Source: Naegleria gruberi
Taxonomy: Eukaryota
Reading direction: 5' to 3' (one strand)
DNA: 64,000 bases
NCBI GenBank assembly: GCA_000004985.1
Contig: GG738846.1
This document shows, one piece after another, positions 4,095 to 59,264 of this stretch (position 1 is the stretch's first letter; the number at the start of each line of letters is the position of its first letter). The position numbers and the translations under genes were made by a program. The notes below the pieces were generated by a model. It was not told where the DNA came from. It saw only the letters and a program-made list of their open reading frames with translations, and searched no databases.

Positions 4095-4167
4095 TTTTTT
4101 GATAAAAAAATTTTAAAATAGAAATTTGGTTGAAGGGTAATCCCGCTAATTTCTATCTACAAAAAAA
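4095..4167. promoter_or_regulatory. 73-bp divergent intergenic spacer between the SLU7 (-) and LRR/FBXL-like (+) start codons. It is a putative compact bidirectional promoter.
   Basis: Both start codons face outward from this AT-rich spacer. This is an inference only; no motif was verified. Confidence 0.3.
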
Positions 4168-6045
4168 ATGCTCAACCAAAGACTTCCTCCAACGAGAGGA
4201 GGGCACAGAAGTAGAGCCTCTTCGGCTGCCAATCAAGAAAATGAATTACGACCTCCAAGTGTTGATCCTAGAGCACAAACTCCGGAAATACCTAACGATG
4301 ATTTGGTAGCATCAAGACATGCTAGTGCATCCTCCTCTCTTGTACAAGCCTACAACAGGGCCAATCTTTCTAATTTAATACCTGGAGAAGCCAAACCAGC
4401 AAAAACTCTTGGTTTATTAAAATCTCTTACTGCAGAACAAAAACCACAACGAGACTATATCAAGTATCCTTTTATGCTTTATGAAGATACAGATAGGTAT
4501 TACTATTCGGACAATGTTCAAGCTTTTTGGAATGAAACAAGATCAAATCTGGAGGAAAATCAAGAATCATTCAAGGATTTATCTTCTGGCGCTACTGATT
4601 TCGAGGATGGAGATGAACAATTGCGAGAGGAACTATTTTCTATTCATACCCAAACCAAAGCTAAAACACTCTGGGCAATTAGTAGTGGTATGTCTTCATT
4701 GGAAAAAACCTCTTCTCCCTTTACAAGGGAAGAGAAGGTTGTAAACTTGGATATGAGGGCAATTGTATCCTCTAGACCTGCTTCGTCTGGTTCAACAACA
4801 AGGTCAGCAAGAACTAGTCAATATATGGCAGGTCCATTTTCTGATTTAATTGATTCGGTTGATAATTCTGGAACTAAATTTAAACAAATTGATGACACAA
4901 AGGATCACACAAAAAGAAGTTATATTATTAATGCAAGTGGAAGATCAATCTCTTCGATTTATCATCCAAATACTAAACGACCAAGCAGAATATCTAATTT
5001 TGTTGAGAATATGAGTATAACTAATGAGTCTTTATTTACTTTTATTTCAACAGAAAATGTGATAACGTTAGACCTTGAAAGATGCGTTGAAATAGATAAT
5101 AAGGTGCTAAAAAGTATTGGAGAGTACTGTCCTAGGTTAAACTCTTTGAATTTACAACATTGTTCACAACTTCGTGACAGTACCATTAGAATCATTGTTA
5201 ATGGATGTTCTGATATTCAAAATCTAAATATTGGCATGTGTCATCTCGTTACAGATGAAAGTCTTGTTGAAATTTTCACACATTGCAGAAAACTAAGAGT
5301 GTTGTCTGTTCATTCATGTGAAATGATAACCGGAGAATTATCGTTCCGCATGACAAAGAATACGCCATTTTTGGAAGTATTGGATATTAGTTTTTGCACA
5401 AAATTTTCAGATATTGCACTTCAATTCTTGTCTGAGTACTGTACTAGATTGAAACATTTGGATGTAAGTGGTTGTCCTCTAATTCAAGATGAGGGACTGT
5501 TATCAATCTGCAAGCATTGTCCTCAAATTGTAACAATGAGAACTACTATTTTATCCCAACCTACCATCACAAGTGATTCTCTTTCTTTCCTAACTAACTA
5601 TGCCAGAAATTTAGAAGTTCTTGAACTTAGTGGAATATTTCAAATTAAGGATGAGTCTGTTGTGGAAATTTGTAAATATGGTCAACGCCTAGAATTTCTT
5701 TCTCTTAGTGGATGTCCAAATATTACAGACGATTCAATTAACGCAATTTCAGATCATTGCCAAAATTTACGTTGCTTAGAAGTTGCTGGGTGTAGGAAAA
5801 TTAGTGTACAGGCTCTATTGGAACTCATTCACAAAGTAACCAAGTTAAGAAGATTGGTTGTTACTAGATGTAATATTTCAATTGAGGAATTAGACATTCT
5901 TAGAAAATTCACAAACGGAAGAGTTAATGTTGTCAAGCAAGAACCAATACCAAAAGAAAAAATTAAGGAGTACTTTACTGTTATTAAGGAAAAAGCAGTG
6001 AAAAAGAAAATATCTAAAAAGAAAGGAGAAAAGAAGAAGAAATAA
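4168..6045 (+). CDS. Leucine-rich-repeat protein of the cysteine-containing subtype (FBXL/AMN1-like), single exon, 625 aa. The N-terminal 270 aa are low-complexity and Ser-rich.
   Basis: ORF 4168-6045 with ATG at 4168. It has repeated ~26-aa LRR_cc units (CPRLNSLNLQHCSQLRDSTI, CSDIQNLNIGMCHLVTDESL, CRKLRVLSVHSCEMITGE, CQNLRCLEVAGCRKISVQAL). A canonical F-box is not obvious. Confidence 0.7.
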   Translation: MLNQRLPPTRGGHRSRASSAANQENELRPPSVDPRAQTPEIPNDDLVASRHASASSSLVQAYNRANLSNLIPGEAKPAKTLGLLKSLTAEQKPQRDYIKYPFMLYEDTDRYYYSDNVQAFWNETRSNLEENQESFKDLSSGATDFEDGDEQLREELFSIHTQTKAKTLWAISSGMSSLEKTSSPFTREEKVVNLDMRAIVSSRPASSGSTTRSARTSQYMAGPFSDLIDSVDNSGTKFKQIDDTKDHTKRSYIINASGRSISSIYHPNTKRPSRISNFVENMSITNESLFTFISTENVITLDLERCVEIDNKVLKSIGEYCPRLNSLNLQHCSQLRDSTIRIIVNGCSDIQNLNIGMCHLVTDESLVEIFTHCRKLRVLSVHSCEMITGELSFRMTKNTPFLEVLDISFCTKFSDIALQFLSEYCTRLKHLDVSGCPLIQDEGLLSICKHCPQIVTMRTTILSQPTITSDSLSFLTNYARNLEVLELSGIFQIKDESVVEICKYGQRLEFLSLSGCPNITDDSINAISDHCQNLRCLEVAGCRKISVQALLELIHKVTKLRRLVVTRCNISIEELDILRKFTNGRVNVVKQEPIPKEKIKEYFTVIKEKAVKKKISKKKGEKKKK

Positions 6046-6124
6046 ATACTTTTTAAAAGTCAACTGCCTTACGTGAAAGTTTATTTTTGACCATTGTTGT
6101 ATTGTAGTTGTTCCCGCCAATGTT

Positions 6125-9100
6125 TTGCACAAAATAAAAAAAATGCTAAACAATGGTATGTTGATTAATGTTTGCCATTGTATTCATGACTTTATAGCCT
6201 GGCAACAGCCGTACGTAAACCTAGTAAAATTATGCTCCGAGAAGGGGAAACAACATTCTTGTGAAGGAGGAGTTACGCAAGAGATGGATCGAGACATCGG
6301 AAGAACAGTATTCAGAATTAAAGGTTCTGTGCCATCAAATAACTATATTTCCTTTCCATCATCTATTCCTAAAAATAAGGGTGATGTGCTTGGTTTAATT
6401 GGTCAATTTTGTTACGTAGAGTTGAGAGCTAATAGGGATGTATTTGTATTTCATGTTGAGATTATGACTAAGGATGAATTAACCTTTAGATTTTCTTTCG
6501 GAAACATTTCCAAACAATTCAAAGTAAGTTATCAAAGAGATCTCTTGTTTTAATTTCAATTAGAAAACTCATAATTCAATTTTCATACCCGTTGATTATC
6601 TGTCCGAGAGTTGGACTGTGCTTGCCATAGATTTTAAAGCTCTTGTTCAGACACACCTAGATAAAGTATTCAAATGTATTAGAGGCATAATTACTTGTTC
6701 AAACCTGTCATTGAAGAATGTATACACAAGTGACAATATCTATTCTACGGACACACTTACTAAAGACATGTTTCTTCCAGTTCCAAAAGGAAGTAGTTGG
6801 ACTGATCTTTATGAATGGCATTGGATTCCATCAGAACCAACAAATATCAAATTAGCATGTATTATTGACCCTCAAACTCTTAAAAAGCCTTCAACTAGTT
6901 TTAATACAAGTAGGACTTCATCAATTGGATCCGCCAACTCTAGACGATCAAAAATTACTGGTGTTTCTAATAAGAGTATGCTGACACCTTCTCCAATTTT
7001 GGATATCAAACGTTTTATTGGATACAATTGTTACTATAATTCCAACTTGTGTTGGACTTTGGATTCAAATTACTGTATTTTCCCAAGTGGCTCATCAATT
7101 ATCAAAATGGAAGTAGCTACAGGTAAGTAATTCTTTGATGGTGATGCTGAAAAATAATAGGAACCCAAACTGCTTTTCAAGGTCATACCCAATCCATCAC
7201 CTCTATTTGTACAGATTACAAATGTAGTATTATAGCAAGTATTCAGAATAATATTCCTCTGATTAGGTTATGGGATATCGAATCTGGGAGATGTTTATCT
7301 GTTTTAAAAGGTCAAGAGACTGAAATTAGTTGTGTTTGCATATCTGATAGTGGGAATGTAATGGTAACAATTGGAAAAGATAAATCTCTAAAGACTCAGT
7401 TTATTATTTGGGATATTTCAAATATTAGAGATTCTGGTGAAGATGTTCCTATTATTTCTAAATATGTATGCGATTATTCAGTTCAAAAGGTCAAATTTGC
7501 TCCCAATGAAGAAACTAAATTTGTTACTTGTGGAATGGAAAATATTAGATTGTGGAGATTGAAAGGTGGAATAGTTAGAGGTTGTTCACTCTCTCTGGAA
7601 AACTATAGTCTAACAAAACAAAACTTTCTTGATATTGCTTTCGAAAAGGCATTTCTTTCTCCTCATGTAAGTATTTCAGGTTGATGAAACTTAAATGTTA
7701 TTCTTAGTTAGGAGACAAAGACCACAGATTCTACTTAGGAACCGAATCAGGTGCTATTTATCAAGTAAATTATAATAAGAGAATAATAGAGTGTGTATTC
7801 CAACTTCATAACAGTGCAATCAATACTCTCTACATTAATGAAGGAATTTGTATTACAGGATCTGCTGATAAGTTTGTTAGAGTTTGGCCCCTAGATTTCT
7901 CTGATTTTTTCATAGAGGCTGAATTGGAAAACTCTGTCACCAGTGTTGTGACATCTAAGGATGGATTCAAAGCTCTTATAGGAGACTCAAATGGATCTAT
8001 TGGAATTTTGGAAATAAGTACTCAGATCTACAGATCAGTACTACGATCTCACACAAAAACTGTTTTGGACGTAGTTAGTGATCCTAGTAGAATGGAGTTT
8101 GCTTCTGTGTCTCTTGATAGAACAATCAGAATTTGGGATCTTACAACTTTAAATCAAAAATATCAATTCGATATTGACGGAGAGAGCCCAATTTGTGTGG
8201 ACTACCACAAGACAGAGTACATGATAGCATGTGGATTCGAGTCTGGTATTGTAAGAATCTTTGAAGTCAACACAACCCAAGTTCTCGAAGAGTACAAGGC
8301 ACACTTGTCTGATGTATTGGCCATAGCATACACATTTGATTCCAAGTGGCTAATCACCTCTTCCAAAGAATCTATTTGTATCTCAGATACCAAACACATG
8401 TACCAACCCGTCAAGGTTATTCCCTACACATGTGAATGCAAAAGGGTGTGTTTATCATTGAGCAGAGATGGAAGATTCTTTGCATTTATTGGACCAAATA
8501 GAAATATTATACATGTGTACAGCTGTAAAGACTTTGAAGAAGTTTATATTTTCGAAACTCCAACCGACTTGTTCGAAGGAATAGTCTTTTCCTCTGATTC
8601 TAAGGAAATAATTGCATCCACTTCAGACAACAAGCTAATGGCCATTTGTTTGGAAAAAGGAGAAATTATTTCAGAAACTGTAAGTAGGTCGATTAGTTTG
8701 AAATTTACATCTTTATCAAAGGAATATTCAAGTAAAAACTATGCTGTAACACTAGACACAAGTCAAAATGGAAAATATTTAGTTACTGGAGGTGACGATA
8801 AATTAATAAGGGTCTGGAACTCGAAAGACTTGGCCAACTTTAGCTGTCAAAAATTTGTTGGTCATTCTGGAGAAATTAAGAAGGTTCTTTTCAGTTCAGA
8901 TTATGGTCATGTCATTAGTTGCGGAGATAATGGTATAATTGTTTGGAACTTCTTAGGAGACAAATCAAGAGATATTAATCTAATGATCGAAACACACTTG
9001 GAAAGAAAGATGATGGAAAAGAAAAAAAAGGAAGATTTTGAAGTTGATGATTTACCAAATAGATATAATGATCTTTTCTCTAAAGCTTTAGAGGAAAAGA

Positions 9101-11289: not shown

Positions 11290-11294
11290 AAAAT

Positions 11295-12978: not shown

Positions 12979-13033
12979 TTTTTTTGTTGTGTTATGATTT
13001 TTATCAGAGCTATTCTTTAATAAAAATACAATA

Positions 13034-15124: not shown

Positions 15125-18100
15125 ATGCCACCAAGAGAAGCAAGAGGAAATTCCAACCCATCATCTGGCTCTTCTCGATACCACAGATCATTTAAGAATA
15201 CATCGGATAATACCGATGAACAACAACATAAACCTTCAAGAGGGAATTATAGAGGGGGATATAGAGGAAACTCTCGTTCAAATTCTTCTTCAAGAACAGA
15301 GGAAACAAATGACACAAACACACAAAAATCGACTTCTCACAGAGGAGGACACAATACACAAAGAGGACCTTACATACCAAGAAATTCAGAGGATTTATCG
15401 GAAGGTTTACCTAAAACAAGAGTTAAGCCATACAAACCTGGTTTTATTAAAAAACAAAAATCCGAAACACTTCCCAATTTTCAAATAGTAGCAAGAAATG
15501 ATGAAGATGAGGAAAGTTCACAAACATCAAATAGGACAAAAAAACAACCATTTAAAAAACCGAATCCAAAAGATTTAGTTTGGGAAAGATCTGCTGAAAG
15601 AGATGATGAGCAGGCTCCAAAACCTCCAAAACAAACTTTTCAAAAACAACCATTTAAAAAACCGAACCCAAAAGATTTGGTTTGGGAAAGGCCTGCTGAA
15701 AGAGATGATGAACAGATTCCAAAACAAAAATTAAAGAAACAACCATTTAAAAAACCGAATCCAAAAGATTTGGTTTGGGAAAGGCCTCCCGAAAAGGATA
15801 ATCAAAGATTTAAAGAAGGAAAAAATCTACATTTACAAATTTTCAAATAGTAGCAAATAATGACGACAAGGACGAGGAGCAAAATACTCAAAAACCACAT
15901 AGAAAGCAACCATTTCAAAAACCAAATCCAAAAGATTTAGTTTGGGAAAGGCCTGCTGAAAGAGATGATGAACAGATTCCAAAACAAACTTTCCAAAAAC
16001 AACCATTTAAAAAACCGAATCCTAAAGATTTGGTTTGGGAAAGACCTGTAGATAAGGATGAGCCAACTCTAACAAATAGAATTGCAAAAAAACAACCATT
16101 TAAAAAACCAAATCCAAAAGATTTAGTTTGGGAAAGGCCTGCTGAGAGAGACGATGAGCAGGCTCCAAAACAAACTTTTCAAAAACAACCATTTAAAAAA
16201 CCGAATCCAAAAGATTTGGTTTGGGAAAGGCCTGCTGAAAGAGATGATGAAGAATCCGAACACTCTCATACACCATCTGGAATTCACAAATATTTAGATG
16301 ATTTATCACATGGCCCAAATATATTTACCCTACCACAAGGATTTTCTGGATTTGGCTCTTACAGAGATTCTAATTTACCAGATAATAATTTATTCGAAAT
16401 TTCTAAACCAAAAATTGTAAATATCAACGAGGATGAAGAGGATAATATAATCAAATCTGACGAGAAAGGGGTATTATTTGAGGATGAAGAACAAGACGAA
16501 GAGTATTATGTAGAAAAAGACCAAACAGACAATGAGCAAGATGAAGAGGATAATCATGACGAGGAAGATCAAGAAGAAGACTATAATAATTTTGTTATTG
16601 AAAGAAAATCTTCCTCATCGTATGATGAAAACGACAGTGAAAGACAAATCCTAACAATTCCCCCTAAAACACATGAAAAGAATGAAAAGGACATTATCTA
16701 CTCGAAACTGAAAACTATGGAATCAAAGACAAAAATTTGGGAAAAAAGCTATCCAATCAAGGCTAACTCAATTATTGGTACATGTCAGGACAAATGCCCA
16801 AAACAAGAGATTACCAACAGAGAAAAGGATAACGATCTCAGTTTATTTGAAAAGACAGGAAAGATCATTATAGACGAGCATGGTATTAAGATGTACAAAG
16901 CAGATCCTAATGCTTGCGTGAAAAAGTATGCCAGATCTGCTGCAGCCGTTCATGCTGATCCTTCACTAATTCGTCCTCCTCTAATACTCAAGAAAACATT
17001 GGAATATTTGACCCATAATATTTTAGAACGTAAAGAAGAGTATCATACTATATATTTTTTTATTAGAGACAGAGCTAGAAGTATTATCCAAGACCTAACA
17101 ATACAAGACATCAGAGATGAACGAAGTGTAGACTTACATGAAATAATTTCAAGGTTTCACATAATGAGTCATCACTTACTAGCAGATGTAGGAGAAGAAT
17201 TATCAGATCCTCATCAAAATCTTGAATTAATGAGCAAATGGCTTAAAAGCTTACAGGAGCTCTATTTTGAATTAAGATCTAATGGAATTGAATGTCCAAA
17301 TGAGTCAGAGTTCACTGCTTACTATATACTTGTAAAGATTACTTCAGATCAAGAAGTTGCCAAGTGTTTGAGAAACCTTCCTTCCAAAGTCAGCAAGTCT
17401 CCAGAGGTATTGTTCGCCCTTAAGGTTTACGGAGCATTTTCTACTAAAAATTATGTACGATATTTTGAATTGGTCAAGCAAGCAAGTTACCTAAGTGCAT
17501 GTCTAATGCACATGTATTTTGCACATATCAGAGAAGAAGCTCTCAGAATTATGAATACAGCATTTAATATTAAGGTCACTGATATTTCCAAGGCTGGTAG
17601 ATATCCAATATCTAAACTCGTAGATATTTTGGCATTTGAAACTAAAGGAGAGTGCACAGATTTTTGCAAAGCCCACGGTATTTATATTGACGGGGATGAT
17701 GTATTATTCAAATACTCCACGTTCGTAACACCTGACAAGAAAATCAAATCAAAGAGGTCATTGAGGTTGATTGAATCAAAGGTTGCTGGCATTAGATACT
17801 CTGATCTTGTAAATTTAAATTTTCGGATAGCTCCAGAACCTTCCAAAACACCGCCGAAAGAATTAGAAACTAAAATCAATGAGTCACCTCAGAAAATCGA
17901 GATAATCAATCCACCAACTCAAGTGCAAATAGTTCCTCCAGCTTCCCAACCAAAACCACCAACACCTGCTCTTATTCAGAGTGCTATTCCAAAGGAAGTA
18001 ATAAGAGAACCTGAAACAAAAATACCATTGGTAACTCAGCAACCACCATCTAGGTATGATGTTCCACATGTCAATCCACCCTCCACTTTTGTTCCACCCA

Positions 18101-20181
18101 AACCAACTACACAAGAAAATAGACCAATCTTTCCTCCAATTGTTTTTAGTCCTTCCCAGATGCCACCTTTTAACATAATCAAGTCACCAAATCCTCCAAT
18201 TCCACCTACTCTAATTCAACCACAACCACCTGTAGCTTTTAAAACTCAATCACATAGAAACGAAATTTCTATTGATCCCTTGATTCCTCAAATCCCAGTC
18301 TCCCCAATTAAACCCCTAGGTCCGACTGAGGAGGAAACCAAAAAAGAACTGAAAAGCAAATATTTTTCATTATTGAAGAAATATGCAGAAAGGAAAAAGA
18401 GAATTCGTGCAAGTAGGAAACAACACATCAGCAATGCAATGGACTTTGTACTCCAAGAAAATATTATGTCAGATGATTATGAAGAAGATCAATCAATGTG
18501 CAAATATTACAAACACATATTCAAGAAGAGATATCTCAGCCAATTATACCAACCTCTTGACTTGGCTTCTCTTATCTTTAATTCACCTGTTACTGACAAG
18601 ATTGATACATTTTTCAGCTTTTTTTGGAAACTAATGATAGTACCAGGAACAAACAGCACTCATCTTAATGAATGGATTGCGGCAAAATTTTCTCGCCCAA
18701 ATAGTGATGACTATTTGTGTAATTTTATAGTAAACGGTAAGGACGTGGATTCCCTACCAAGACCCAAGAAAAACACAGAACTACATATTTGTGCACGAAC
18801 CCCCAAAGACTCAAGGTCATGGAGAGGTACTTCCTCAATAATTTTCATATTGGATAATCCCAACAATACCGATTTACAGACATATTTCTCACTAGAAAAA
18901 AAGAGGTTACACCAACATTTTTCAAATTTAGGCTTATTTAATGATACTCATATCCCTATTCTAATTCTCTTTGATAAGAGCTGGTTTCACAATAGCAGTG
19001 AAAATATGCTAAAGGAGCATTTCCTTCACATTATCTATGAAGATTTTAAATGCTTTTCAAATGTGGAATATGTAGGCATTAATTTTACTCACCTACTAAA
19101 CTTTCCCTCATCAGAAGAAATTGCTATTTTAAATCAAGTTTTAGAAAATTACACCTTGTGGCTTGCAAATAACTCCTCCGATCCACCTCTTCTCCACACA
19201 TATTCTATTAGAGATTTGATAGAAGAAACAACTTTTTCACACATTCGAAAATTGTTGATCGATATTGATCCAAATGCTAGAAATGGTATAACTGTTAAGG
19301 ATTTGATACTTGTATACAATGATGTGTGTGAATCGCTATCCCATCAGACTATTTCAGAGACTGAAAGAATGAGAAAACTAAATTGGCCAGCTCCAGAGTT
19401 TGAAAAGTATTGCGATTGGAACACAGATGAAAATGCAATACTTCAAAAAGAGCTTTTAGGTCAATTATCATTACCAACCATTGATCTAACTCTCTACAAC
19501 TCTAAACATATTGTTGACAATTTGTATAGCTCATGTAAGCAGTATGTGACAACCCTGTATACAAAACGTAAGATTTATCATCCAGCCATTTCCAGTCAAT
19601 CCATCAAGCAGTTGGTTAAGGAACTTGTTAACGGTGGTGGATATGCTGCTAGTATCAAAATCTTTGAAATGTTCATTGAGATACATTTAACCTTGCTCTT
19701 TGATAAGGATCCACTTTATAGTTTTGTTTTCACCACAGCAGAATTCAAAAGTATTGCCAATTCAGTTTTGGAGAGGCTCAGATATAGCTCAAACCCATTC
19801 ATCGAATCGTCATTAAGGGCTTCGTATGGGTTAAAAATGTCTCTCAATTCAGACAAGACTAATTTTGAGACTTTTAGAAATCTTAAACGTATTATCAAAG
19901 AATCCACTCAAGAAAAAAACCAAGATTGTAAGAAGAGAAAACTTGTTACCTATATTGATATTAATCAATGTATAGGGATGCACACCCAATTATCAAACAA
20001 AATTAGTGAGCAAAGAAGTCTATTTTCTCATCTCGAATCAGCCCCATCCGATCTTAGTTACCACTCTATTGTAGATACAGATATGAGTGACACAGTATCC
20101 ACCAGTGACAGTTGTCAGTCCTGCATTGATTCCCTCAAATTACTACAAGAAAAACTTGAAATGTATAGAAAGGGTATTTAA
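15125..20181 (+). CDS. SAC3: SAC3/GANP-domain protein (TREX-2 / nuclear mRNA export scaffold). The N-terminal region is built from tandem ~31-aa repeats, and the gene model has a frame break near 15845.
   Basis: ORF 16030-20181 (its frame is open from about 15822) contains the SAC3/GANP homology region (CPKQEITNREKDNDLSLFEK..MYKADPNACVKKYARSAA..IRPPLILKKTLEYL..YFFIRDRARSIIQDLTIQ). ORF 15125-15850 (ATG at 15125) carries the same QPFKKPNPKDLVWERPAERDDEQ repeats in a frame shifted by +1. No GT..AG pair reconciles the two frames, so this is either an indel or an assembly error inside the repeats. Confidence 0.65.
15541..16260 (+). repeat. In-frame coding tandem repeat array. About 7 copies of an ~93-nt unit (periods 86-168 nt) encode QPFKKPNPKDLVWERPAERDDEQ(A/I)PKQTFQK.
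   Basis: Near-identical DNA copies of caaccatttaaaaaaccgaatccaaaagatttRgtttgggaaagg start at about 15547, 15651, 15737, 15905, 15998, 16093 and 16186. Confidence 0.8.
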
Positions 20182-20189
20182 TAAAGTGC

Positions 20190-21425
20190 TCAGATTTTGA
20201 ACGTTTGGTAAATATTTTCCTTATTGAGTTCAGTTAGAGGAGACAATCCACTTGTCATATCAACCGATTTTGTTTGTTTTTGTTTTTCAAATTCTGTCTT
20301 TTCTTTAAGGAAAGCCAATCTTTCTTTTTCTAATTGTTTTTCCTTTTCTTCTAATTTTTCTTCCTTCTTCTTTATGAATTGTTCTCTTTTTTCTAATGCC
20401 TTTTCTTTTTCCTTGAGGATCTTGTAGCGTTGTTTGATATAGGTATCGAAAATATTAAATCTCACAATAGATGTTTCACAAATTTCAACAATGGAAATTC
20501 TTTTTTTTGGCTTCAATTAAATGTAAGAGGTTGGTAGTTGAAACACTATACTTACATCTACACAAATCATTCTATTGATTAATTCAGAAACCTCCTTACT
20601 GTAACAAGATGGAATTGGATTGAATTTTCCAGCTGCAATCTTCTTTTCAAGTAACACAGCATTTGGAGCTTTAAAAGGAGGCTCCAAGGTGCACAACTCA
20701 TACAAAATACATCCCAGAGACCAGATATCACAACTTTCGTCATACCCTTGATCACTCAATTGATCTGACAATAATTCAGGAGGCATATAGTAAGGTGTTC
20801 CAAGTCTTGTGTGAGCAAACTTTGATTGGTCCGATAAAATTCTTGCCAATCCAAAATCACCCAACTTTACATTCAAATCTTTATCCAAGAAAATATTTCC
20901 TGGTTTCAAATCTCTATGAATAACTTTTCCACTCTTTCTTGTGTGACATTCTTTTAATGCACAACAAACTTCGGAAAAGATTTTCAGAACTGTTGCTTCT
21001 TCAATTTTACCAGATGTTTTCTTAATGGATTGTATAAATTTACCCAAATCTCCACCCTCACAGCACTCCATCAAAATGTACAATTTTCTCTTGTTTTTAT
21101 CAATGTACCTATTAAAATATTTAACTATATTCTTGTTTTCCAAATCTTTGAGAATGTTAACCTCTAAATAAATGTATGTTTTTTATCACCCTCAAGTCTC
21201 TTACTTACCAGTGACTATTAATTGCTTTTCCTTCTCCGACATTCGGCCATAATCAATCTCTTTCCACACATATATCCTATGATCCTTCTTGGATTTAACC
21301 TTATACTTTTTATAGGGATAGAATTATAGTTAAAATTTATGGAAATGATTTAAACCTACCACACTTCCAAAGCTACCATGCCCTAATTGTTCTACAACAT
21401 CAAAATCGGCTAATCCTGTCTCCAT
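20190..21425 (-). CDS. NIMA-related Ser/Thr protein kinase (NEK2-like), about 363 aa, with a C-terminal coiled coil. Four exons.
   Basis: Exons 21360-21425, 21209-21305, 20556-21163 and 20190-20510 are joined by introns of 54, 45 and 45 nt (GTAGGT/GTAAGT..AG). The spliced sequence reads METGLADFDVVEQLGHGSFGSV|YKVKSKKDHRIYVWKEIDYGRMSEKEKQLIVT|EVNILKDL... It has the catalytic loop HRDLKPGNIFLD and the DFG motif (DFGLAR), followed by GTPYYMPPE. The NEK2-like C-terminus PKKRISIVEI is followed by a Glu/Lys coiled coil. Total CDS length is divisible by 3. Confidence 0.8.
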
Positions 21426-21535
21426 ATTGCTGTTAATGAAATGTTGTATTTTTTTTAACAATGTGTAACGTTTCGATTCTAGAAATATTGAGCGGTTAAG
21501 GAACATTTGGCGGGAAAAATAAAAATTTTACTTGC

Positions 21536-26700: not shown

Positions 26701-27206
26701 AAGAAGTAAAACAAAATAGCCAATCAAAAGAAAGAGTACATTCCAGAAAACAAACCATCATTTCTGCACCTCCCATTATGAATGAATTCTTGAATATTAA
26801 ACAAGAAATGATTGCCAATGTAAATAATCAAATTATAGGCCACAAAGAACTGGCTATTCAACAAGTTCCTGTACAATTAGGCATTAGCGAACAAGTAGAG
26901 TTCACAATTAATGTAACACTTAGCTCAGTTAATAATCAACAAATTTTAAATAAGATTGCAAGTTTAATTTTAAGAGTTTATCAAGATGGAGAAAATGGTA
27001 CAAGAATACCTGCAACAAACCGACAATTTTGTTATTCTGGTAGATTGAATACTTGTTTGGAATTGACGTCATCGAGTCCTTCCCAAATAACTCTAAAACT
27101 TTTCTTTTTAGAAAAGGGGACATTTAAATTATCAGTTCTTTGTAATGATGAACAAACTCAAGATATGCTTACCTCTCCAATAGAGGCAGTTCTTGTAATT
27201 AAATAA
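23736..27206 (+). CDS. TRAPPC9: TRAPP II-specific subunit TRAPPC9/Trs120 homologue, about 1,100 aa, four exons.
   Basis: Exons 23736-24914, 24967-25150, 25217-26613 and 26658-27206 are joined by introns of 52, 66 and 44 nt (GTATGT/GTTAGT/GTAAGT..AG). Phases are consistent and total length is divisible by 3. The N-terminus (RNVHGVIGIMSC, NYPLYQAGAAEGMASI) and internal blocks (KRKFGFFLRQVAVLHHEL, PQLFIYSP, IDLRLKNV) parallel TRAPPC9. Confidence 0.75.
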
Positions 27207-27295
27207 ATTGTGGAGTATTGAATTATTATTTAACTCGATAGATAATATCACCCAACCGTATTGTATTTAATTGCTTGGTTACCACTTCAAAAAAA

Positions 27296-27865: not shown

Positions 27866-27957
27866 ATGCTTGTATTATTAATAATTGCAATTAAATAATT
27901 TTCAAATCTATCCAACAAAAAGGAGTGAAAAATCTAACATCTAATTACTTTAAAAAA

Positions 27958-30571: not shown

Positions 30572-30601
30572 GGAAAAGAATAAAAAATTACACAATTAAA
30601 A

Positions 30602-34481: not shown

Positions 34482-34529
34482 TTTTTCAAAGTGAAACTAG
34501 TACAGTATTTTTAACGGCTAGTATTTATT
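34482..34529. promoter_or_regulatory. 48-bp divergent spacer between the SH3-protein (-) and membrane-protein (+) start codons. Putative minimal bidirectional promoter.
   Basis: The two start codons face outward. Inference only. Confidence 0.3.
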
Positions 34530-36005: not shown

Positions 36006-36079
36006 TCAAGTCCTTTTAAAAAGATCGGTTTTATTAATGAACATGATAAATAAAAAAACTGATGATGAGAAGAATAAAA

Positions 36080-36289: not shown

Positions 36290-36403
36290 TTTTTTTTGAA
36301 AAACCAAAAGAGAAATTATTTAATTTTACAGCCTACATTTTTTATTTGAACAACCTCTTTAAATCAAGATGTACACAGAACAATTTTATTTTTGAAAATT
36401 ATT

Positions 36404-37392: not shown

Positions 37393-40300
37393 ATGGACAT
37401 TACCCCTATTATTGAGCAAATACAGACCAAAGGTAACTATTTTTAATTGTTACATTATTTTACTGAGCAATGTATTATCGGAACAAAAAAGATCCAACCG
37501 AAAGGATCCAAGGATTGACACACCTAACGAATTCCATGCTCGACATTGCATTGGTATGTTATGAAAAAATATGTTTGTGTTTTAATGTAGAATTTAGGAT
37601 GACATTTCAAGTGTAATGAATGCAATAAGGCCTACATTGAAGGATAACAACTTTAAAGTTTGTGAGGCATCACTAACTTTCCTTTGCACTTTTTTGGAGC
37701 ACATTGATGCAAAAATCTTTCAACCATATTTTATTGATTTTGTAAATTTGCTTTTGGAAAGATTTGGAGACACTAAAGTGTCAGTTAGAGATAAGGCCTT
37801 TGAGGCTATAATTATGGTCGCTAGACACTACTCTGCAAGTACAGTGCTTGATAGTATTAGAGAAGGATTTATCCATAAGAGCTGGAGAGTGAGAGAGGGT
37901 GTATGCTTGTCTTTTGTTCAGATCTTACAAACCTTTGGACCCAAGACTATTTCACTTGCAAAATTTTTGCCAGATATTGTAAGTCTATTGGATGATTCCA
38001 CACCAAGCGTAAGGGATTCTGCAATATTGGGTATATGTGAAATTTATCGCTTTGTTGGAGCTGACTTATTCCAGGAATTGTCCAATTACAAATTAAGGAC
38101 TTCGCAAATTAAGGCCATTGAAGATAGAGCATGCGAAATTATGGTCGACACTGAAAACCTCGTTTCTCTAAAACCTAAAGCAAAAAGCCCTCTGAAACCT
38201 CCTAGATCAAGACAAACCATTCATACAAACATTACTACTAATGGAAAATCAGCAACTGATGATACAGAAGAAACAGATGTACAACCAATTTACATCAAAG
38301 AGAACGATATTCAAAAAGAAACAGAGCAATCCCTTGAAATTTTGAATGACACCAAAAATCTTGATTGGAAAAAAAGATTAAATTGCATTAGACGCTGGAG
38401 GGGTATAGTTTATGGAGGAGCAACGGATTTTTCATCATTTATTGGAGAATTTCTTAGATTAAGGGAGGCCATTTCAAAGCAAGTAGTTGATTTACGTTCT
38501 ACAATTGTTAAAGAAAGTTGCATGTTACTCAATCTTATTGCAAAAACCATGGGCTCCAAGTTTGAACCACTCTCTGATTACTTTGTTCCAATACTACTCA
38601 AGAGCACTGTAGTGACAGTTCAGGTTATTTCTGATTCGGTAAATACTTGTATAAGAACTCTTATAATTCACGCAAAATTGAATAGAGGTATTTCTGTAAT
38701 AGTAGAGAGACTAACAGACTCTAAAACTCATGCAACCATGAGATCTAGGTGTGCAGAATACTTGGTTTTAATTTTTCAACATGTTGACACTGGATTTTTA
38801 TCCAAAATAATTGACGAATTATGCAAAGCTCTCAAGTCTGCTATTAATGATGCCAGCCCTTCAGCTAGACAGGCTGGAAGGCAGGCATTCATGGCATTCA
38901 AGGAAGTGTTTCCTGATAGAGCAACAAAAATTTTCAGCGAGCTAGATCCAAGTACTCAAAAAAAACTTAATGAAGAGTCTAACAAGTCTGGACAAATTTC
39001 CCCAAGATCAACTACTTCAAGTCTGAGTGGAGCAGCATCAGTAACATCATATGTTTCGTCAGGTTCTACAATAAGAAGAACAAAATCTGTCATTACAAGA
39101 AAGCTACCAACCAAACCTGAATCCAGTACAACACTTATCACAGAAAAAAAGTTAATTTCTAAACCCGTCATACCTTCTATTCCACTTTCCACAACATATC
39201 CTCCTTCTCCAAAAAAGATTTCTCTTCCTGTTAGGCCAGTATCTGTTGCAGGAAAAAACTCGCCATCTTCCCCAAAAAAGAGTCCTAATTCAACTAATCT
39301 AATCAAATCTAGTAGAACTGATTCCGTATTGATTCCAAAAAAACTAGTATTTGGTTCTGATCCTATGGATGTTGGAGAAGATTTGGCAATAGTACAAGAG
39401 GTAGAGACAGTGTCTACAATTTTGAGAGAATCTAAAAATCTCGATTGGAAAGCCAAAATTACAGTTTTTGAAAAATTAGAATCAATTATCAACAGTGGTA
39501 GAAGTTCTGAAATTAAGAATACTTTTCTGCAAGTAATCAATTTGTATATTGACAGATTATCTGATACTTATCAAAAAGTTGTTGAAAAGGCTCTCACTTC
39601 ACTCATCAAGCTAATAGATCATTTACCAGAAAATGTTGAACCTTACTTGGAACGTATTTTATCCAAATTATTTTTACTGTTGACCGAAGAAAAAACAAAG
39701 ACTCTAGCTGAACATTTATTAACCAAGATTGGTAATTCTTATTCTGGTGATATTCTGTTACCAAGAATTTTTAAAATTGTAGATACATTCAATTCAAGAG
39801 TAAGGGTAGCTTGTTTAGAGTTTTTGATGCATATTGTACAAAGTAGTTCTGCCTATCTCAGCTATCCAGGGCATATGAGATCGAGCATTAAGAAGATTAT
39901 TGCCCTTATTCAACAGAATACCTCAAAATCATGTGATGCAGCTCTCACAAGTATTATGATATCACTTTATACAATTAACTCGACTAATTTCATGGAGCAA
40001 CTTTTATCTTTACCTTCGTTAGAGCAAAATCCTATCAAAAATTTGCTTAGAGAGCGAGTTAGTGATTTTGATCAACATCTTACTTTGTAAGTTTTATTAG
40101 CGAGTTAGTAGTGCTTAATATTGTAAATTAACTGACTTTAGAATTTCTAAAAAATCATCCCCTACCACTTCCACAACCACCGTTCTAACTTCAAAACCGA
40201 CCCTTCCTAACAGAAACGTTGAAAACATTATTTCCTTACCAATAAGAAACACTGACAGAGAATATCAAACTACTGATACTCTCGATGAAATCTCCTCCTC

Positions 40301-46347: not shown

Positions 46348-46394
46348 ATTATTGTTCCTTGTTCTTATTCCAATATTTTATTTAAATAAAAAAA

Positions 46395-47960: not shown

Positions 47961-49278
47961 ATGCCTCCTCCACCTCCACCTCCACCATCTAATGTTCCAC
48001 CACCAGTTGCCTATAAGCCACCAAAAGAAGTTTCTACAGCTGGCAGAGGTGATCTGTTAGATTCTATTCGTAAAGGAAACAAGTTAAAGAGGGTACCAGA
48101 AAGTGAAAAGAAGGAAAAATCAGGTGATGTTGTTGGTAAAGTTCTTGATCGTAATGCTCCAAAGAAGCCTGCAAGTGAGAGTACACCACCAAAACCTGCC
48201 AAGTAAGTAATTTTAAATCCTTTAATTTTCTTAACAATAATTCAATTAATTAATATTAATTTAAAGTACTGGTTTTGTTCCAACAGGAAATCCAATGATG
48301 GATGAAATTCTCAAGAAGAGACAAGGCTTAGGAAATAATTCTGGAAGTGGATCCTCTACAGCTACTACTAACACTCCACCAACAAGAGCCACACCACCAA
48401 CTGTTCCTTCAAACAGACCACCTTCATCATCAAGTACAATACCAACCAGAACTGCTCCTACTTTACCATCACGAGCTGGTACCGGTTCATCTCAAACAAC
48501 TAGTACACCTCCACCAGTTGTTTCTTCAACAACACCAAGTGTACCAACAAGAACAACTCCTTCTTTACCAACAAGAACAACTCCATCAGTTCCAACAACA
48601 AGTTCAAATCCACCTTCAGGAGAAACAGGAAGAAGAGCTCCACCACCACTCCCTCAAAAGACTGGAGGTGATACAACAGGAAGAAGAGTCCCTCCACCAC
48701 TCCCTCAAAAGACTGGAGGAACTCAACAACCATCTCTTCCTTCGAGAAATCCTCCTCAAACAACTAGTACACCTCCACCAGTTGTTTCCACACCACCACC
48801 AGTGGTTGAAAAGAAACCACCTCCACCTCCAAGAAATGAGGTCAAGACTGAAACATCATCACCAACATTGCCTCCTGTCAGAAAACAACCACCAGTGTCA
48901 ACACCTCCAGTTGTGGAATCACCAAATGAATCATCAAATATTCAAACTGAAGGACGTTTCCAATTCCGAACTGACCTTCCACCTGTTCCTCCATTTACTG
49001 GAAAGCCTAAAGTTTACAAAACAAAAGGAGGATCAAGCTCATCATCATCACAAGCTAATGCTCCAAGTGTTCCCCCACCAAGACCAACTAAACCAAAGAG
49101 AGATATTGAAAAGGAAAAGAAGGAATTGGAAGCTCAAGCTAATGCATTAATGCAAGATTTTGTTAAAAGAATGATGTTTGAAAAATGCGTTCCTTTGAGA
49201 GATTTGTTGGAAAAGATTAGTAAGGCTAATGATGAGGCTACACTTGATAATATCAAAGAACAACTCTTAAACATGTAA
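47961..49278 (+). CDS. Verprolin/WIP-family actin regulator: N-terminal WH2 motifs, long proline-rich core and a C-terminal WASP-binding region. Two exons; the intron position is uncertain.
   Basis: The first block (47961-48174, possibly to 48203) reads MPPPPPPPPSNVPPPV..GRGDLLDSIRKGNKLKRV, a WH2 motif at the extreme N-terminus as in Vrp1/WIP. The second block (48287-49278) has a second WH2-like motif MMDEILKKRQ, then a proline-rich region, then GRFQFRTDLPPVPPF, which resembles the WIP WASP-binding motif ESRFYFHPISDLPPPEPY. The two blocks are in different frames. Only the donor GCAA|GTGAGA (about 48175) with the acceptor ..TTCCAACAG (48286) gives an in-frame join. The canonical GTAAGT at 48203 cannot be spliced in frame. 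Confidence 0.6.
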
Positions 49279-49322
49279 TCTATTTAGTACCTTTAATAAA
49301 TCTTGTAAATTACCTAATATGT

Positions 49323-50654: not shown

Positions 50655-50704
50655 TTTTTTGAAAAATATGTACAACTAATTTTAAATTAAAATTAGATTA
50701 AAAA
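50655..50704. promoter_or_regulatory. 50-bp divergent spacer between the TFIIH-p44 (-) and MCAT (+) start codons. Putative minimal bidirectional promoter.
   Basis: Outward-facing ATGs at 50652-50654 and 50705. Inference only. Confidence 0.3.
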
Positions 50705-51892: not shown

Positions 51893-51954
51893 CTTGTTCT
51901 TTATTAAAAAACCATCACACAATGAAAAAATATTATTTAATTTTTAAAAAAAAA

Positions 51955-55605: not shown

Positions 55606-55704
55606 TAAAAGCTAATAGTATAATTTATACTATTGATGCGAAATTATGAAAATAATACTAAAAATTATATTACTTCCGAGTTGTTGTTTAATTGTTGTTG
55701 TTAT

Positions 55705-56127
55705 TTAATTTTCTCCATTTTGATTGAGTTCCTTATTGTATCGGGTTAAACCTGCACAGTTTAGCCACAATTGTGGAATAAATAGTCCTTGTACTGATGG
55801 ATTTTTAGTTAACTTGGCAAATCCAATCTTTTTGGCTTTATCACCCCATTGTGATTTAATATTGTGGAGTTTTTGGGAAATTTCAGTAGAGTCCATGTTT
55901 TTGCAATCATGAACATGTTCTCTTCCGTTCTTATAAATTGCCTTCATGTATGGATGTCTACCTCTACGTAATTGTACAACAAATTTAACATCAGGCGATA
56001 ATTTAGCCATTTCCCAGAAAGCACCAGATGATTGGTCCAAAAAATTTCTCATTCCGGATGAGCTTCCTCCCCAATCACAGAAATAAACACAAACTTGTTT
56101 CAACTGTGTCACACCGTTCCTAGACAT
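55705..56127 (-). CDS. MRPL43: Mitochondrial ribosomal protein L43 (yeast Mrpl51; L51/S25/CI-B8 thioredoxin-like fold), 140 aa.
   Basis: ORF 55705-56127. QVCVYFCDWGGSSSGMRNFLDQSSGAFWEMAKLSPDVKFVVQLRRGRHPYMKAIYKNGREHVHDCKNMDSTEISQKL parallels MRPL43 ([37 protein letters not shown]..). Confidence 0.75.
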   Translation of the reverse strand: MSRNGVTQLKQVCVYFCDWGGSSSGMRNFLDQSSGAFWEMAKLSPDVKFVVQLRRGRHPYMKAIYKNGREHVHDCKNMDSTEISQKLHNIKSQWGDKAKKIGFAKLTKNPSVQGLFIPQLWLNCAGLTRYNKELNQNGEN

Positions 56128-56232
56128 TTTTTTTTATTCAATATTTTTTTAATAAATTAATTTAAATTACTTTTTTAAAAAATATGATAAGTTTTTGAAT
56201 GGTAGCCTATTAATGTCAAAATAATTATTGGT

Positions 56233-58368: not shown

Positions 58369-58394
58369 TTTGAAAAAAATGAATAAATACAACA
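58369..58394. promoter_or_regulatory. 26-bp divergent spacer between the NOA1-like (-) and hypothetical (+) start codons.
   Basis: ATG on the minus strand at 58366-58368 and ATG on the plus strand at 58395-58397. This is a 26-bp spacer if these ATGs are the true starts, or about 90 bp if the plus gene uses the next ATG. Confidence 0.3.
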
Positions 58395-59234
58395 ATGCGT
58401 TTGTTCATACCAAATTCAACTCAAAACAAATATCATAATACATCAACAACACTAACAATGAACAACCATGAAACTGTACTCTGTGAAGGAACTTTAGACA
58501 TGTTTGATGCTCCATCTTTTACTAGCATCAATATTAGTAGTAATTCTTCATCTTCTCCGTCATCTAATTCTCCATCACTTGTTTTTCATCTTTCAACATC
58601 ATCCGACTTTCAAACATCTGAACAAACCAAACAAAGTTCAAGTGGAAAAAGATCTAAATCAAAGGCAAAGAAGAGGAAAGTTATTTTGGATGAGGATGAT
58701 GAACGTGATTATGAGGAGTGTGATTTTATTTTGGAAAAGGGAGTTTATTCATATGCACCAAAGTATCAATGTTGGACAGATATTTCAAGTGAGGTAAAAC
58801 AGGTTTATAGAGTGGTTTGGGATATGTTTGCCAAGTGTGCCCGTTCTATCATTAATGATCATTTGGAAATGAGAAACACTAGTAGAGTCCACCATCTTAC
58901 TCTTGGTTCATGTCTACCAACAGTCTTTTACTTGATATTGAAGGAAACAAATGGTGTATTCAATCAATGGTTCCAAGTTGTTAAGAAGCATGGTATTAAA
59001 GTTAAGGAAGAATGTATCCAATTTCGATTCAAGAATTGTCTTCCATGTTTGGATAAGTATGATGATTGGGGCAACTTTCAGGTTAAGCTTATCAACAACA
59101 CGTGCAAATTTGGCCAAAAAGTTTTGTTACATAGGATGAAAATTAACTACATCTCCCTTACCTGCAATGTAAGATCCAATCAAGTCTACTCATCATTCAA
59201 ATTCGAGAAAGACATGGAAATTGTTGTTCAATAA
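58395..59234 (+). CDS. Hypothetical protein, 279 aa. It has a Ser-rich N-terminus, a basic patch and a Cys/Trp-containing C-terminal domain. No family recognised.
   Basis: ORF 58395-59234 with ATG at 58395. Codon usage is similar to its neighbours. A shadow ORF (58504-58797) sits in another frame. Confidence 0.4.
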   Translation: MRLFIPNSTQNKYHNTSTTLTMNNHETVLCEGTLDMFDAPSFTSINISSNSSSSPSSNSPSLVFHLSTSSDFQTSEQTKQSSSGKRSKSKAKKRKVILDEDDERDYEECDFILEKGVYSYAPKYQCWTDISSEVKQVYRVVWDMFAKCARSIINDHLEMRNTSRVHHLTLGSCLPTVFYLILKETNGVFNQWFQVVKKHGIKVKEECIQFRFKNCLPCLDKYDDWGNFQVKLINNTCKFGQKVLLHRMKINYISLTCNVRSNQVYSSFKFEKDMEIVVQ

Positions 59235-59264
59235 ATATAGCCGTTTCAATTTAAATTCAAAAAA

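Follow-up and report, generated by a model that had tools for sequence, protein, structure and literature searches.

Tightly spaced genes in a stretch of Naegleria gruberi nuclear DNA

Introduction

Mean spacers of ~100 bp, occasional gene overlap and signals forced into neighbouring genes are known from microsporidia (e.g. Encephalitozoon) and from the nucleomorphs of cryptomonads and chlorarachniophytes, which are drastically reduced parasite or endosymbiont genomes of 0.4-3 Mb that have lost genes and whose transcripts are known to overlap or to span several genes. A/T-rich initiators adjoining the ATG and very short 5′UTRs are found in Giardia and Entamoeba. At the 3′ end Giardia lamblia and Entamoeba histolytica resemble Naegleria gruberi in having ultrashort 3′UTRs: the median is 22 nt in E. 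histolytica, stop codons double as poly(A) signals in G. lamblia, and nanopore direct RNA sequencing of N. gruberi gave a median of 39 nt, with 11-13% dual-use stops whose UTRs measure 22 nt (PMC11529991). The signals themselves differ, however, Giardia using WGURAA 8-9 nt from the cleavage site without auxiliary elements, whereas in N. gruberi a canonical AAUAAA stands 15-20 nt from it and is joined by UGUA and U-rich auxiliary elements (PMC11529991).

N. gruberi is a free-living amoeboflagellate of 41 Mb and 15,708 genes (Fritz-Laylin 2010 statistics tabulated in PMC8296547), and its genome is therefore not a reduced one. The published coding fraction is 57.8% in N. gruberi and 71-73% in N. 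fowleri (PMC8296547), and the gene density of the latter has been termed prokaryotic-range in published genome work. Here we describe gene spacing in a window of 64,000 nucleotides (the whole stretch analysed; contig GG738846.1), which we read, at a probability of roughly 0.8, as normal gene-dense N. gruberi nuclear architecture, in which individually transcribed and randomly oriented genes lie ~90 bp apart and all non-coding parts are pared down.

Methods

Gene models were rebuilt from open reading frames and GT-AG introns, guided by Pfam boundaries and by deposited proteins that matched exactly. The 3′ ends were predicted by combining stop-embedded or stop-proximal A[AT]TAAA hexamers with the published signal-to-cleavage distance of 15-20 nt. 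Spacing, motifs with their statistics, organism and orientation pattern were read from the window itself, while 3′UTR length, the poly(A) signal and the signal-to-cleavage distance were taken from the literature.

Results

Judged by protein identity, the window is nuclear DNA of N. gruberi NEG-M. Its SLU7 is 100% identical to NAEGRDRAFT_34959, which sits on a 1.0-Mb scaffold, and exact identities were also found with NAEGRDRAFT_62117 (the SH3 protein), _62126 (malonyl-CoA ACP transacylase, MCAT), _77994 (a 279-aa protein encoded on the + strand) and _62122. GC content (~33%; 0.30-0.39), short GT-AG introns and AAUAAA signals near or overlapping the stop in dual use likewise fit the N. gruberi nuclear genome. 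A preliminary description of this DNA had likened its architecture to the reduced genomes of microsporidia and nucleomorphs, and the likeness holds for spacer size but not for reduction. Spacer sizes and short introns similar to those of such genomes would suit an origin from a nucleomorph, a microsporidian or a similar endosymbiont or parasite, but the assignment to a 41-Mb genome of ~15,700 genes refutes this source, to which we give practically no weight. Gene content speaks against it too, since flagellar/centriolar WDR90/POC16, CLASP, TRAPPC9 and a polycystin-type channel are among the encoded functions that typify a complex free-living cell. Several of the N. gruberi models deposited in 2010 are truncated in the window.

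In positions 1-59859 we rebuilt 32 gene models separated by 31 coding-to-coding spacers (Table 1). Their median length is 89 bp and their mean ~110 bp, 19 being shorter than 100 bp; medians per class are ~95 bp (tandem), ~124 bp (divergent) and 44 bp (convergent), and 94% of 551-59234 lies inside ATG-to-stop spans. The extreme compaction first claimed across the window is thus real: its genes are truly about 90 bases apart. These values are close to those of microsporidia and nucleomorphs and, as in those genomes, a gene overlap occurs, here a single one of 4 bp; unlike them, the window has common though tiny introns (at least 23 in 32 genes). Scanning the gaps between genes for tRNAs and Rfam RNAs returned none.

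Twelve of the thirteen spacers listed in the preliminary description were reproduced exactly: the divergent ones of 73, 50 and 26 bp, the tandem ones of 62 (twice), 30 (twice) and 47 bp, and the convergent ones of 5, 44 and 74 bp together with the TTAA overlap of two stops. The thirteenth, a divergent spacer of 48 bp at 34482-34529, had to be redrawn to 81 bp, as position 34530 opens a TTG and the first ATG stands at 34563. Two further short spacers, the convergent one of 8 bp between SAC3 and NEK and the tandem one of 55 bp at 12979-13033, had been absent from that list.

Table 1. Spacers and overlap between neighbouring coding sequences, by position in the window
Feature	Positions	Strand or flanking genes	Remarks
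62-bp tandem spacer	489-550	-	LRR gene stop (551) to following gene's ATG (488); ATG context TTTTAAAAAAatg
101-bp tandem spacer	2416-2516	-	SLU7 stop (within taaATAAA) to LRR ATG (2415)
73-bp divergent spacer	4095-4167	SLU7 (-) / F-box-LRR (+)	A-run before both ATGs
97-bp tandem spacer	6046-6142	+	F-box-LRR stop (AAtaaA) to WDR90/POC16 ATG (6143)
5-bp convergent spacer	11290-11294	WDR90/POC16 (+) / glutaminase (-)	Glutaminase stop within AATAAA
55-bp tandem spacer	12979-13033	-	Carboxypeptidase stop to glutaminase ATG; ATTAAA at +12; context CAAAAAAAatg
8-bp convergent spacer	20182-20189	SAC3/GANP (+) / NEK-like kinase (-)	Palindromic TTTAATAAA poly(A) core
110-bp tandem spacer	21426-21535	-	Brix stop to corrected NEK ATG (21425)
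89-bp tandem spacer	27207-27295	+	TRAPPC9 stop to APRT ATG
92-bp tandem spacer	27866-27957	+	APRT stop to polycystin/TRPML-type channel ATG
30-bp tandem spacer	30572-30601	+	Channel gene stop to NHL-repeat gene ATG; AATAAA at +7
4-bp TTAA overlap of two convergent stop codons	33387-33390	NHL-repeat gene (+) / SH3 gene (-)	
81-bp divergent spacer	34482-34562	SH3 gene (-) / membrane protein (+)	ATG 34563, AAAAAA context, GCGCCAAAAAAatg
74-bp convergent spacer	36006-36079	Membrane protein (+) / Nop10 (-)	Own AATAAA each, at +43 and +44
114-bp tandem spacer	36290-36403	-	PSF3/GINS3 stop to Nop10 ATG
47-bp tandem spacer	46348-46394	+	PH-domain gene stop (AAtaaA) to RCC1 gene ATG
44-bp convergent spacer	49279-49322	WH2 protein (+) / TFIIH Ssl1 (-)	TTTAATAAA core at 49292 common to both
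50-bp divergent spacer	50655-50704	Ssl1 (-) / MCAT (+)	10% GC; central palindrome CTAATTTTAAATTAAAATTAG
62-bp tandem spacer	51893-51954	+	MCAT stop to SF3B3 ATG (51955); context AAAAAAAAAatg
99-bp convergent spacer	55606-55704	SF3B3 (+) / mitoribosomal L51-S25-CI-B8 protein (-)	Both stops within A[AT]TAAA
105-bp tandem spacer	56128-56232	-	YqeH-like GTPase stop to L51-S25-CI-B8 gene ATG
26-bp divergent spacer	58369-58394	YqeH-like GTPase (-) / NAEGRDRAFT_77994 (+)	
30-bp tandem spacer	59235-59264	+	NAEGRDRAFT_77994 stop (AAtaaA) to following ATG

Could the close spacing be a product of the gene models, with wrong starts or missed terminal exons hiding true spacers of several hundred bp? The TTG start, the several deposited models that differ from simple ORFs and three genes with missed 5′ exons lend this some colour, yet we hold it to be highly improbable. 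The preliminary description had named corrected models that restore spacers of several hundred bp as an unlikely refutation, and in fact every correction either shrank a spacer or shifted it by just 33 bp: adding missed 5′ exons narrowed the gap upstream of the NEK gene from 464 to 110 bp, and adding missed 5′ exon(s) narrowed those of the Zn2Cys6 gene from 461 to 238 bp and of the CLASP gene from 390 to ~167 bp. For five ORF or spliced models the product is identical to a deposited protein, many ATGs have an in-frame stop only a few codons 5′ of them, and Pfam/PDB alignments reach the termini. The CFA20 domain begins at residue 19 of the WDR90/POC16 model starting at 6143, whose fourth propeller extends to profile position 310/312, close to the C-terminus; Nop10 matches from residue 1 (profile positions 3-51/52); the C1_4 domain of Ssl1 reaches the final residue, and the alignment of the N. 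fowleri homologue covers 97% of the Ssl1 model; and the corrected NEK model with its upstream kinase exons covers Pkinase profile positions 2-261/263. For SF3B3 the second ATG (51955) is the right start, since Met-51955 lines up with the first residue of the full-length human protein. The spliced channel model after 27957 matches PKD_channel.

The gene ends are further backed by two signals that were unused in picking them, the highly non-random A-run at starts (p=5e-30, for starts chosen simply as the first ATG) and AATAAA at stops (p=6e-6). A metagenome assembly made independently and 99.7-99.9% identical agrees letter for letter at the 33387-33390 overlap and in the 46348-46394 spacer, and these two junctions are therefore not assembly artefacts.

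An A precedes 31 of the 32 start codons at -1, and AAAA occupies -4 to -1 at 24 of 32, compared with 55 of all 2158 ATGs (2.5%); the A-run is also present at starts in N. fowleri and Willaertia loci. 5′ of the window's ATGs we saw A-runs only and nothing resembling an acceptor consensus. Among TTTAAA sites within 120 nt upstream of an ATG, 15/25 sit within 30 nt of it. The ATG follows an A-run, often as TTTAAAAAA-ATG, and the 5′UTR is probably very short; we infer a likeness here to the 5′ ends of Giardia and Entamoeba. With so short a leader and spacers of 26-62 bp, part of the transcription machinery would have to sit on the neighbouring gene as it assembles. The spacers are enriched in GC-rich boxes that resemble transcription-factor sites. 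Individual boxes noted were the E2F-like AGCGGGAG at 2458 (spacer 2416-2516), ATCCCGCTAA at 4142 (4095-4167), TTTGGCGGGAAAAA at 21510 (21426-21535) and AAAGCGCCAAA at 34552 (34482-34562).

Stop codons are TAA in 29 of 31 genes. AATAAA overlaps the stop in 10/31 (32%, against 6.1% of all TAA trinucleotides), a larger share than the 11-13% of dual-use stops reported genome-wide (PMC11529991), and A[AT]TAAA does so in 14/31 (p=4e-7). An A[AT]TAAA lies within 200 nt past the stop in 28 of the 29 genes scanned, the exception being Brix, for which no canonical hexamer was found within 200 nt; in WDR90 and the NHL-repeat gene the first 90 nt also lack one, the earliest standing at +171 and +90 respectively. 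Counted over 55 kb of gene bodies, AATAAA is present 10 times in sense and 78 times in antisense orientation, and hexamers of the same composition 22-96 times. Such a sense-strand purge would render the signal at the stop unambiguous, and stops that often lie inside A[AU]UAAA, or are followed by the signal within ~20 nt, would yield 3′UTRs of ~20-40 nt.

Predicted cleavage falls inside the gene's own spacer for 21 of 29 3′ ends and in the neighbour's coding sequence for the other 8; each of the three convergent pairs less than 10 bp apart contributes both its genes to these 8. In these pairs, with -4, 5 and 8 bp between stops, cleavage is predicted at least 11-25 nt inside the partner: for glutaminase 11-16 nt inside WDR90, and for SAC3 and NEK 11-25 nt inside one another. 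At the SAC3/NEK junction the + strand AATAAA overlaps the - strand ATTAAA at 20177-20185. Convergent neighbours can abut or overlap, some with one palindromic TTTAATAAA core that spells a signal on either strand, and where stops are less than 10 bp apart the two mRNAs would have to overlap tail-to-tail by tens of nucleotides. In the 30-bp tandem spacers the predicted 3′UTR of the upstream gene leaves 0 to ~10 nt before the next ATG: the AATAAA at +7 of the channel gene places its cleavage at or just beyond the ATG of the NHL-repeat gene, and for NAEGRDRAFT_77994 ~10 nt remain. For the LRR gene at 551 the earliest A[AT]TAAA past the stop is at +65, within the first codons of the next gene.

These junctions bear on a second reading, namely that transcript overlap and read-through are pervasive, most genes having too little space for a promoter, UTRs and a poly(A) signal of their own, so that transcripts would routinely start within the upstream gene, run into the downstream one or be multigenic, as in microsporidia and nucleomorphs. 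The eight cleavage sites inside neighbours, the nearly filled 30-bp tandem spacers, the 26-bp divergent spacer (too small for two conventional core promoters) and the distant or absent hexamers of WDR90 (171 nt), the NHL-repeat gene (90 nt) and Brix (200 nt) all point that way. We nonetheless find this reading doubtful: 21 of the 29 predicted 3′ ends fit their own spacer, the published median 3′UTR is only 39 nt (PMC11529991), the purge of sense AATAAA and its placement at stops favour precise gene-by-gene 3′ end formation, and random gene orientation speaks against multigene units. The view taken in the preliminary description, that signals must be embedded in neighbours or shared, stands for the tightest junctions, among them the convergent ones of -4, 5 and 8 bp, but fails for most, and its interpretation as a whole is partly supported. 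Under individual transcription, the sequence suggests that short 5′UTRs, promoters overlapping neighbouring genes and tail-to-tail mRNA overlap would all be features of this locus.

Gene orientation in the window is random. The 32 genes form 16 same-strand runs, or 2.0 genes per run as expected by chance, the longest run is of 4 genes, and the strand switches at 15 of 31 junctions; this speaks against operons, and long same-strand runs of the Euglenozoan polycistronic type were not found in the window. Polycistronic, operon-like units resolved by trans-splicing, in which tandem spacers need no promoters of their own, would be a natural comparison given that Naegleria belongs to the same supergroup (Discoba) as kinetoplastids and euglenids, that the window has short same-strand spacers as they do, and that some 4-gene same-strand runs have spacers of 30-133 bp. 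We nevertheless judge such units very unlikely. In addition to the orientation pattern, the tandem spacers are not systematically shorter than the divergent ones, most tandem genes carry their own A-run start and poly(A) hexamer, and the spacers hold promoter-like motifs, unlike the kinetoplastid/euglenozoan arrangement. A comparative preprint likewise gives Heterolobosea ~2 genes per directon, as in yeast, and finds that spacer length between directons relative to that within them is also similar to yeast. Taken together, random orientation, own hexamers (28/29), A-run starts (24/32), the purge of sense AATAAA and ~2 genes per directon make multigene transcripts unlikely as the main mode.

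The window also contains 23 short GT-AG introns of 37-64 nt (median 42), mostly with GTAAGT donors. Near-minimal introns of this kind would be part of the paring-down of all non-coding sequence that we propose for these individually transcribed genes.

Discussion

What we describe has largely been published, and tight spacing is mostly a documented trait of N. gruberi, permitted by very short UTRs and by poly(A) signals that lie within stop codons. The published N. gruberi and N. fowleri genomes are, like the window, gene-dense, with short introns, AAUAAA signals, ultrashort 3′UTRs and dual-use stops; in the Naegleria literature consulted we found neither convergent coding sequences that abut or overlap nor the A-run before start codons described. 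The difference lies in degree, with 94% of the window in ATG-to-stop spans compared with 57.8% coding in the published N. gruberi genome. The latter figure corresponds to spacers averaging close to 900 bp, so that the window must be far above the usual density unless genes are missing from the 2010 annotation. In loci sampled from N. fowleri and Willaertia the annotated spacers are wider (medians 197-456 bp), and the two largest N. fowleri gaps held no hidden ORFs when checked for them, leaving extreme spacing across the genus unsupported.

Although speculative, and in our estimation somewhat improbable, microsporidian-grade packing (median spacer <100 bp) might extend throughout the genome of this free-living, ~16,000-gene eukaryote without reduction, the 57.8% coding fraction then being an annotation artefact. 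Such packing would be achieved through near-leaderless mRNAs that start at an element of the TTTAAAAAA-ATG type, poly(A) signals placed within stops and obligatory tail-to-tail overlap at a large share (here 3/7) of convergent pairs, some with a single two-way palindromic TTTAATAAA. If this were true, compaction of this extent would not depend on reductive evolution, and N. gruberi would possess abundant natural sense-antisense RNA pairs.

Gene content and origin of the window

Stop-to-stop ORFs were scored with a codon table trained on the window, joined through GT-AG introns and named by Pfam, which yielded 32 genes in positions 1-59859 and a cullin fragment beyond an assembly gap of 2,077 N (59860-61936). 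The GC content is ~33%, and no tRNA or Rfam RNA was found in the window, including the larger gaps, which were searched for hidden RNA genes.

Genes of the window in order, with positions and remarks where available
Gene	Product	Position	Strand	Remark
1	unknown		-	
2	LRR		-	
3	SLU7	2517-4094	-	100% NAEGRDRAFT_34959
4	F-box/LRR		+	
5	WDR90/POC16		+	CFA20 domain at residue 19
6	glutaminase		-	
7	M14 carboxypeptidase		-	
8	SAC3/GANP	15125-20181	+	
9	NEK-like kinase	ATG 21425	-	full Pkinase domain
10	Brix		-	
11	LYR		-	
12	TRAPPC9	blocks 23736-24932 and 25267-27206	+	
13	APRT		+	complete in Pfam
14	polycystin/TRPML-type channel		+	
15	NHL-repeat protein		+	
16	SH3 protein		-	
17	membrane protein		+	
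18	Nop10		-	
19	PSF3/GINS3		-	
20	CLASP	probable start 37393	+	
21	Zn2Cys6 protein	ATG 43727	-	
22	methyltransferase		+	
23	PH protein		+	
24	RCC1		+	
25	WH2 protein	47961-49278	+	
26	TFIIH Ssl1		-	
27	malonyl-CoA ACP transacylase (MCAT)		+	
28	SF3B3	ATG 51955	+	
29	mitoribosomal L51/S25/CI-B8 protein		-	
30	YqeH-like GTPase		-	
31, 32	two unknown genes		+ +	

The preliminary description had likened this architecture to that of reduced genomes such as nucleomorphs and microsporidia, which proved to be the wrong kind of genome. In a homology search the 525-aa SLU7 ORF was identical to N. gruberi NAEGRDRAFT_34959, located on a 1,001,995-bp scaffold, and four further models equal N. gruberi deposits residue for residue (NAEGRDRAFT_62117, _62126, _77994 and _62122). 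These identities make the window nuclear DNA of N. gruberi, a free-living amoeboflagellate of the Heterolobosea whose 41-Mb genome holds ~15,700 genes (PMC8296547), and a nucleomorph or microsporidian source is thereby ruled out. An exact-sequence look-up of 20 gene models returned matches for six, four of them deposited N. gruberi proteins; because deposited and rebuilt models frequently differ, such a look-up is an inefficient way of validating gene ends.

Several gene structures deserve comment. TRAPPC9 consists of two ORF blocks joined across 24915-25266 (+) by an intron, or poorly resolved stretch, of ~240-350 nt, versus 37-64 nt for the other 23 introns. A model in which a weak GTAATT intron linked TRAPPC9 and APRT was rejected, as Pfam recognizes a separate, complete APRT, which has its own ATG preceded by an A-run (a stretch of A directly 5' of the start codon). 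In SAC3/GANP the frame shifts within a tandem KKQPFKKPNPKDLVWERP repeat at 15800-15870 (+) with no convincing intron, the probable cause being either an assembly error of 1 nt within the repeat or an unusual intron. For the proline-rich WH2 gene, codon-bias score and local GC (0.39) are the highest of the window, the upstream spacer (384 bp) is among the largest, and the ATG lacks an A-run.

Spacer lengths and the reality of the gene ends

Twelve of the 13 tiny spacers previously listed between neighbouring coding ends were reproduced to the base in our rebuilt models. The exception, a supposed 48-bp divergent spacer, is 33 bp off, since the triplet at 34530 reads TTG; counting to the first ATG, at 34563, gives 81 bp. 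The 62-bp spacer upstream of SF3B3 presumes a start at the second ATG (51955); this choice is right, as full-length human SF3B3 aligns to that Met with its residue 1. Two junctions had been overlooked, one convergent (20182-20189, 8 bp) and one tandem (12979-13033, 55 bp). Across the 31 corrected spacers the median length is 89 bp and the mean ~110 bp; 19 are shorter than 100 bp, and 94% of 551-59234 falls within ATG-to-stop spans. An independent assembly, composed of short contigs from metagenomes with genes called in prokaryotic style and used only for assembly comparison, is 99.7-99.9% identical and shows no difference at the 33387-33390 overlap or the 46348-46394 spacer. The compaction itself is real and well supported, and its scale had been judged correctly.

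Starts were chosen solely as the first ATG of each ORF. Position -1 was nevertheless A in 31 of 32 starts and positions -2 to -4 were A in 27-28; AAAA at -4 to -1 marks 24/32 starts versus 55/2158 of all ATGs (p=5e-30). TAA terminates 29 of 31 genes, and 10 of the 31 stops overlap AATAAA; among TAA trinucleotides as a whole the share is 6.1% (p=6e-6). Protein alignments likewise extend to the termini: from residue 1 in Nop10 and SF3B3, to the last residue in Ssl1 (C1_4), and to near the C-terminus in WDR90 (fourth propeller). Taken together, these signals and matches close the possibility that corrected gene models would restore larger spacers, which had been considered unlikely from the outset; every correction found tightened the packing or changed a spacer by no more than 33 bp.

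Three seemingly large gaps hold missed 5' exons, namely those of the NEK kinase, the Zn2Cys6 gene and CLASP. First-ATG models of the NEK kinase and CLASP had missed short exons at the 5' end, set off by introns of ~35-55 nt. Adding the NEK exons (in 21072-21425) moves the start from 21071 and regains a complete Pkinase domain, while the CLASP addition (37393-37615) lengthens the modelled N-terminus by ~47 residues and may restore what the shorter model lacks of the first TOG domain. The deposited NAEGRDRAFT_62122 (723 aa, ATG 43504, minus strand) lacks its first exon and is truncated at the N-terminus; in the Zn2Cys6 gene the upstream exon, followed by an intron of ~50 nt, completes the fungal-type motif ACENCRKKHTKCSRTLPQCQECLKKGYVC. 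The 2010 gene models are often truncated in this window, and coding density is understated as a result.

Control regions at the 5' ends

The only strong 5' feature in common is the A-run, frequently lengthened to TTTAAAAAA-ATG. Of 25 TTTAAA sites in the 120 nt upstream, 15 are no more than 30 nt away from the ATG. Out-of-frame ATGs precede the starts at 58395 and 34563 by 16 and 29 nt, respectively, which fits with very short leaders, and in spacers of 26-62 bp the transcription machinery would have to sit partly over the neighbouring gene. No usable start-site or 5'UTR data for Naegleria were found in the accessible literature.

GC-rich boxes similar to the E2F consensus (e.g. TTTGGCGGGAAAAA, TTCCCGCCAATG, AAAGCGCCAAA and TTGGCGCCAC) occur in otherwise very AT-rich spacers at 2458, 4142, 6113, 21510, 34552 and 37254; among the genes downstream of them are the NEK kinase, WDR90/POC16 and PSF3/GINS3. 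The promoter spacers (3.2 kb) contain 8 copies of CGCCA/TGGCG, against 7 in 56 kb (OR 21, p=2.4e-7), and 4 of CCCGC, against 2. This enrichment within AT-rich spacers points to gene-specific control. The strand switches at 15 of 31 junctions, and the resulting 16 same-strand runs for 32 genes equal random expectation; according to a comparative preprint on Discoba, Heterolobosea likewise have ~2 genes per directon, with spacer ratios similar to those of yeast. Strand runs, directon size and GC-rich boxes together argue against operons.

The divergent Ssl1/MCAT spacer (50655-50704; 50 bp, 10% GC) carries a near-perfect 21-nt palindrome, CTAATTTTAAATTAAAATTAG, midway between the two ATGs, which may be a two-way promoter element.

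Signals at the 3' ends

Nanopore direct-RNA data for N. gruberi gave a median 3'UTR of 39 nt, with AAUAAA 15-20 nt 5' of cleavage, auxiliary UGUA and U-rich elements, and 11-13% of stops overlapping AAUAAA, for which UTRs shrink to 22 nt (PMC11529991). The same stop-overlap system is seen in the window at a higher frequency (32%). Within 55 kb of gene bodies (551-59234) AATAAA is ~8-fold rarer in sense (10 versus 78 antisense); ATTAAA is mildly skewed (35 versus 52), and hexamers of the same composition as AATAAA show no sense-strand depletion (22-96 occurrences).

Promoters, UTRs and poly(A) signals had been proposed to be necessarily embedded in neighbouring genes or shared. This need was overstated, given that the published spacing places predicted cleavage inside the spacer for 21 of 29 genes, but the tightest junctions do force overlap. 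The eight remaining predictions comprise both partners of the convergent pairs at -4, 5 and 8 bp, where tail-to-tail mRNA overlap would be nearly unavoidable; the LRR gene, whose first hexamer lies within the opening codons of the next gene; and the channel gene 5' of the 30-bp spacer, which falls outside only marginally. At two convergent junctions a TTTAATAAA core (20177 and 49292) reads as AATAAA in one direction and as ATTAAA in the opposite one.

In a relative from Logan SRR636569 (L004 1808-1811), whose SLU7 is 65% identical, an opposite-strand ORF is called 2 bp past the SLU7 stop; should this ORF prove genuine, convergent genes that nearly abut would occur in another heterolobosean as well.

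How typical is the window?

The N. gruberi genome is listed as 57.8% coding and that of N. fowleri as 71-73% (PMC8296547), and N. fowleri gene density has been termed prokaryotic-range in the literature. At 57.8% coding the average spacer would be close to 900 bp, well above that of the window; part of this difference is annotation, because several deposited models here are truncated. Willaertia and N. fowleri loci around the SLU7 and Ssl1 homologues have larger annotated spacers (medians 197-456 bp), and an ORF scan of the two largest N. fowleri gaps gave no convincing missed genes. The regions around SLU7 and Ssl1 in Willaertia, N. fowleri and the SRR636569 relative showed no synteny with the window, which makes spacer-by-spacer comparison impossible. 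The pre-ATG A-run is common to Willaertia, N. fowleri and our window.

The underlying phenomenon (gene-dense Naegleria genomes, ultrashort 3'UTRs and dual-use stops) is already published; what this window adds is local detail in the form of abutting convergent genes, the strand-specific AATAAA purge, the A-run, two-way poly(A) cores and truncated deposited models. The A-run at starts and the stop-embedded AATAAA are cheap and useful signals for re-annotation, and promoter or knock-in design in Naegleria as an emerging model must deal with control regions of 26-100 bp that overlap neighbouring genes. The main value of these findings is corrective. Since a large free-living protist genome can locally resemble a microsporidian one, tiny spacers by themselves are no indicator of genome reduction.
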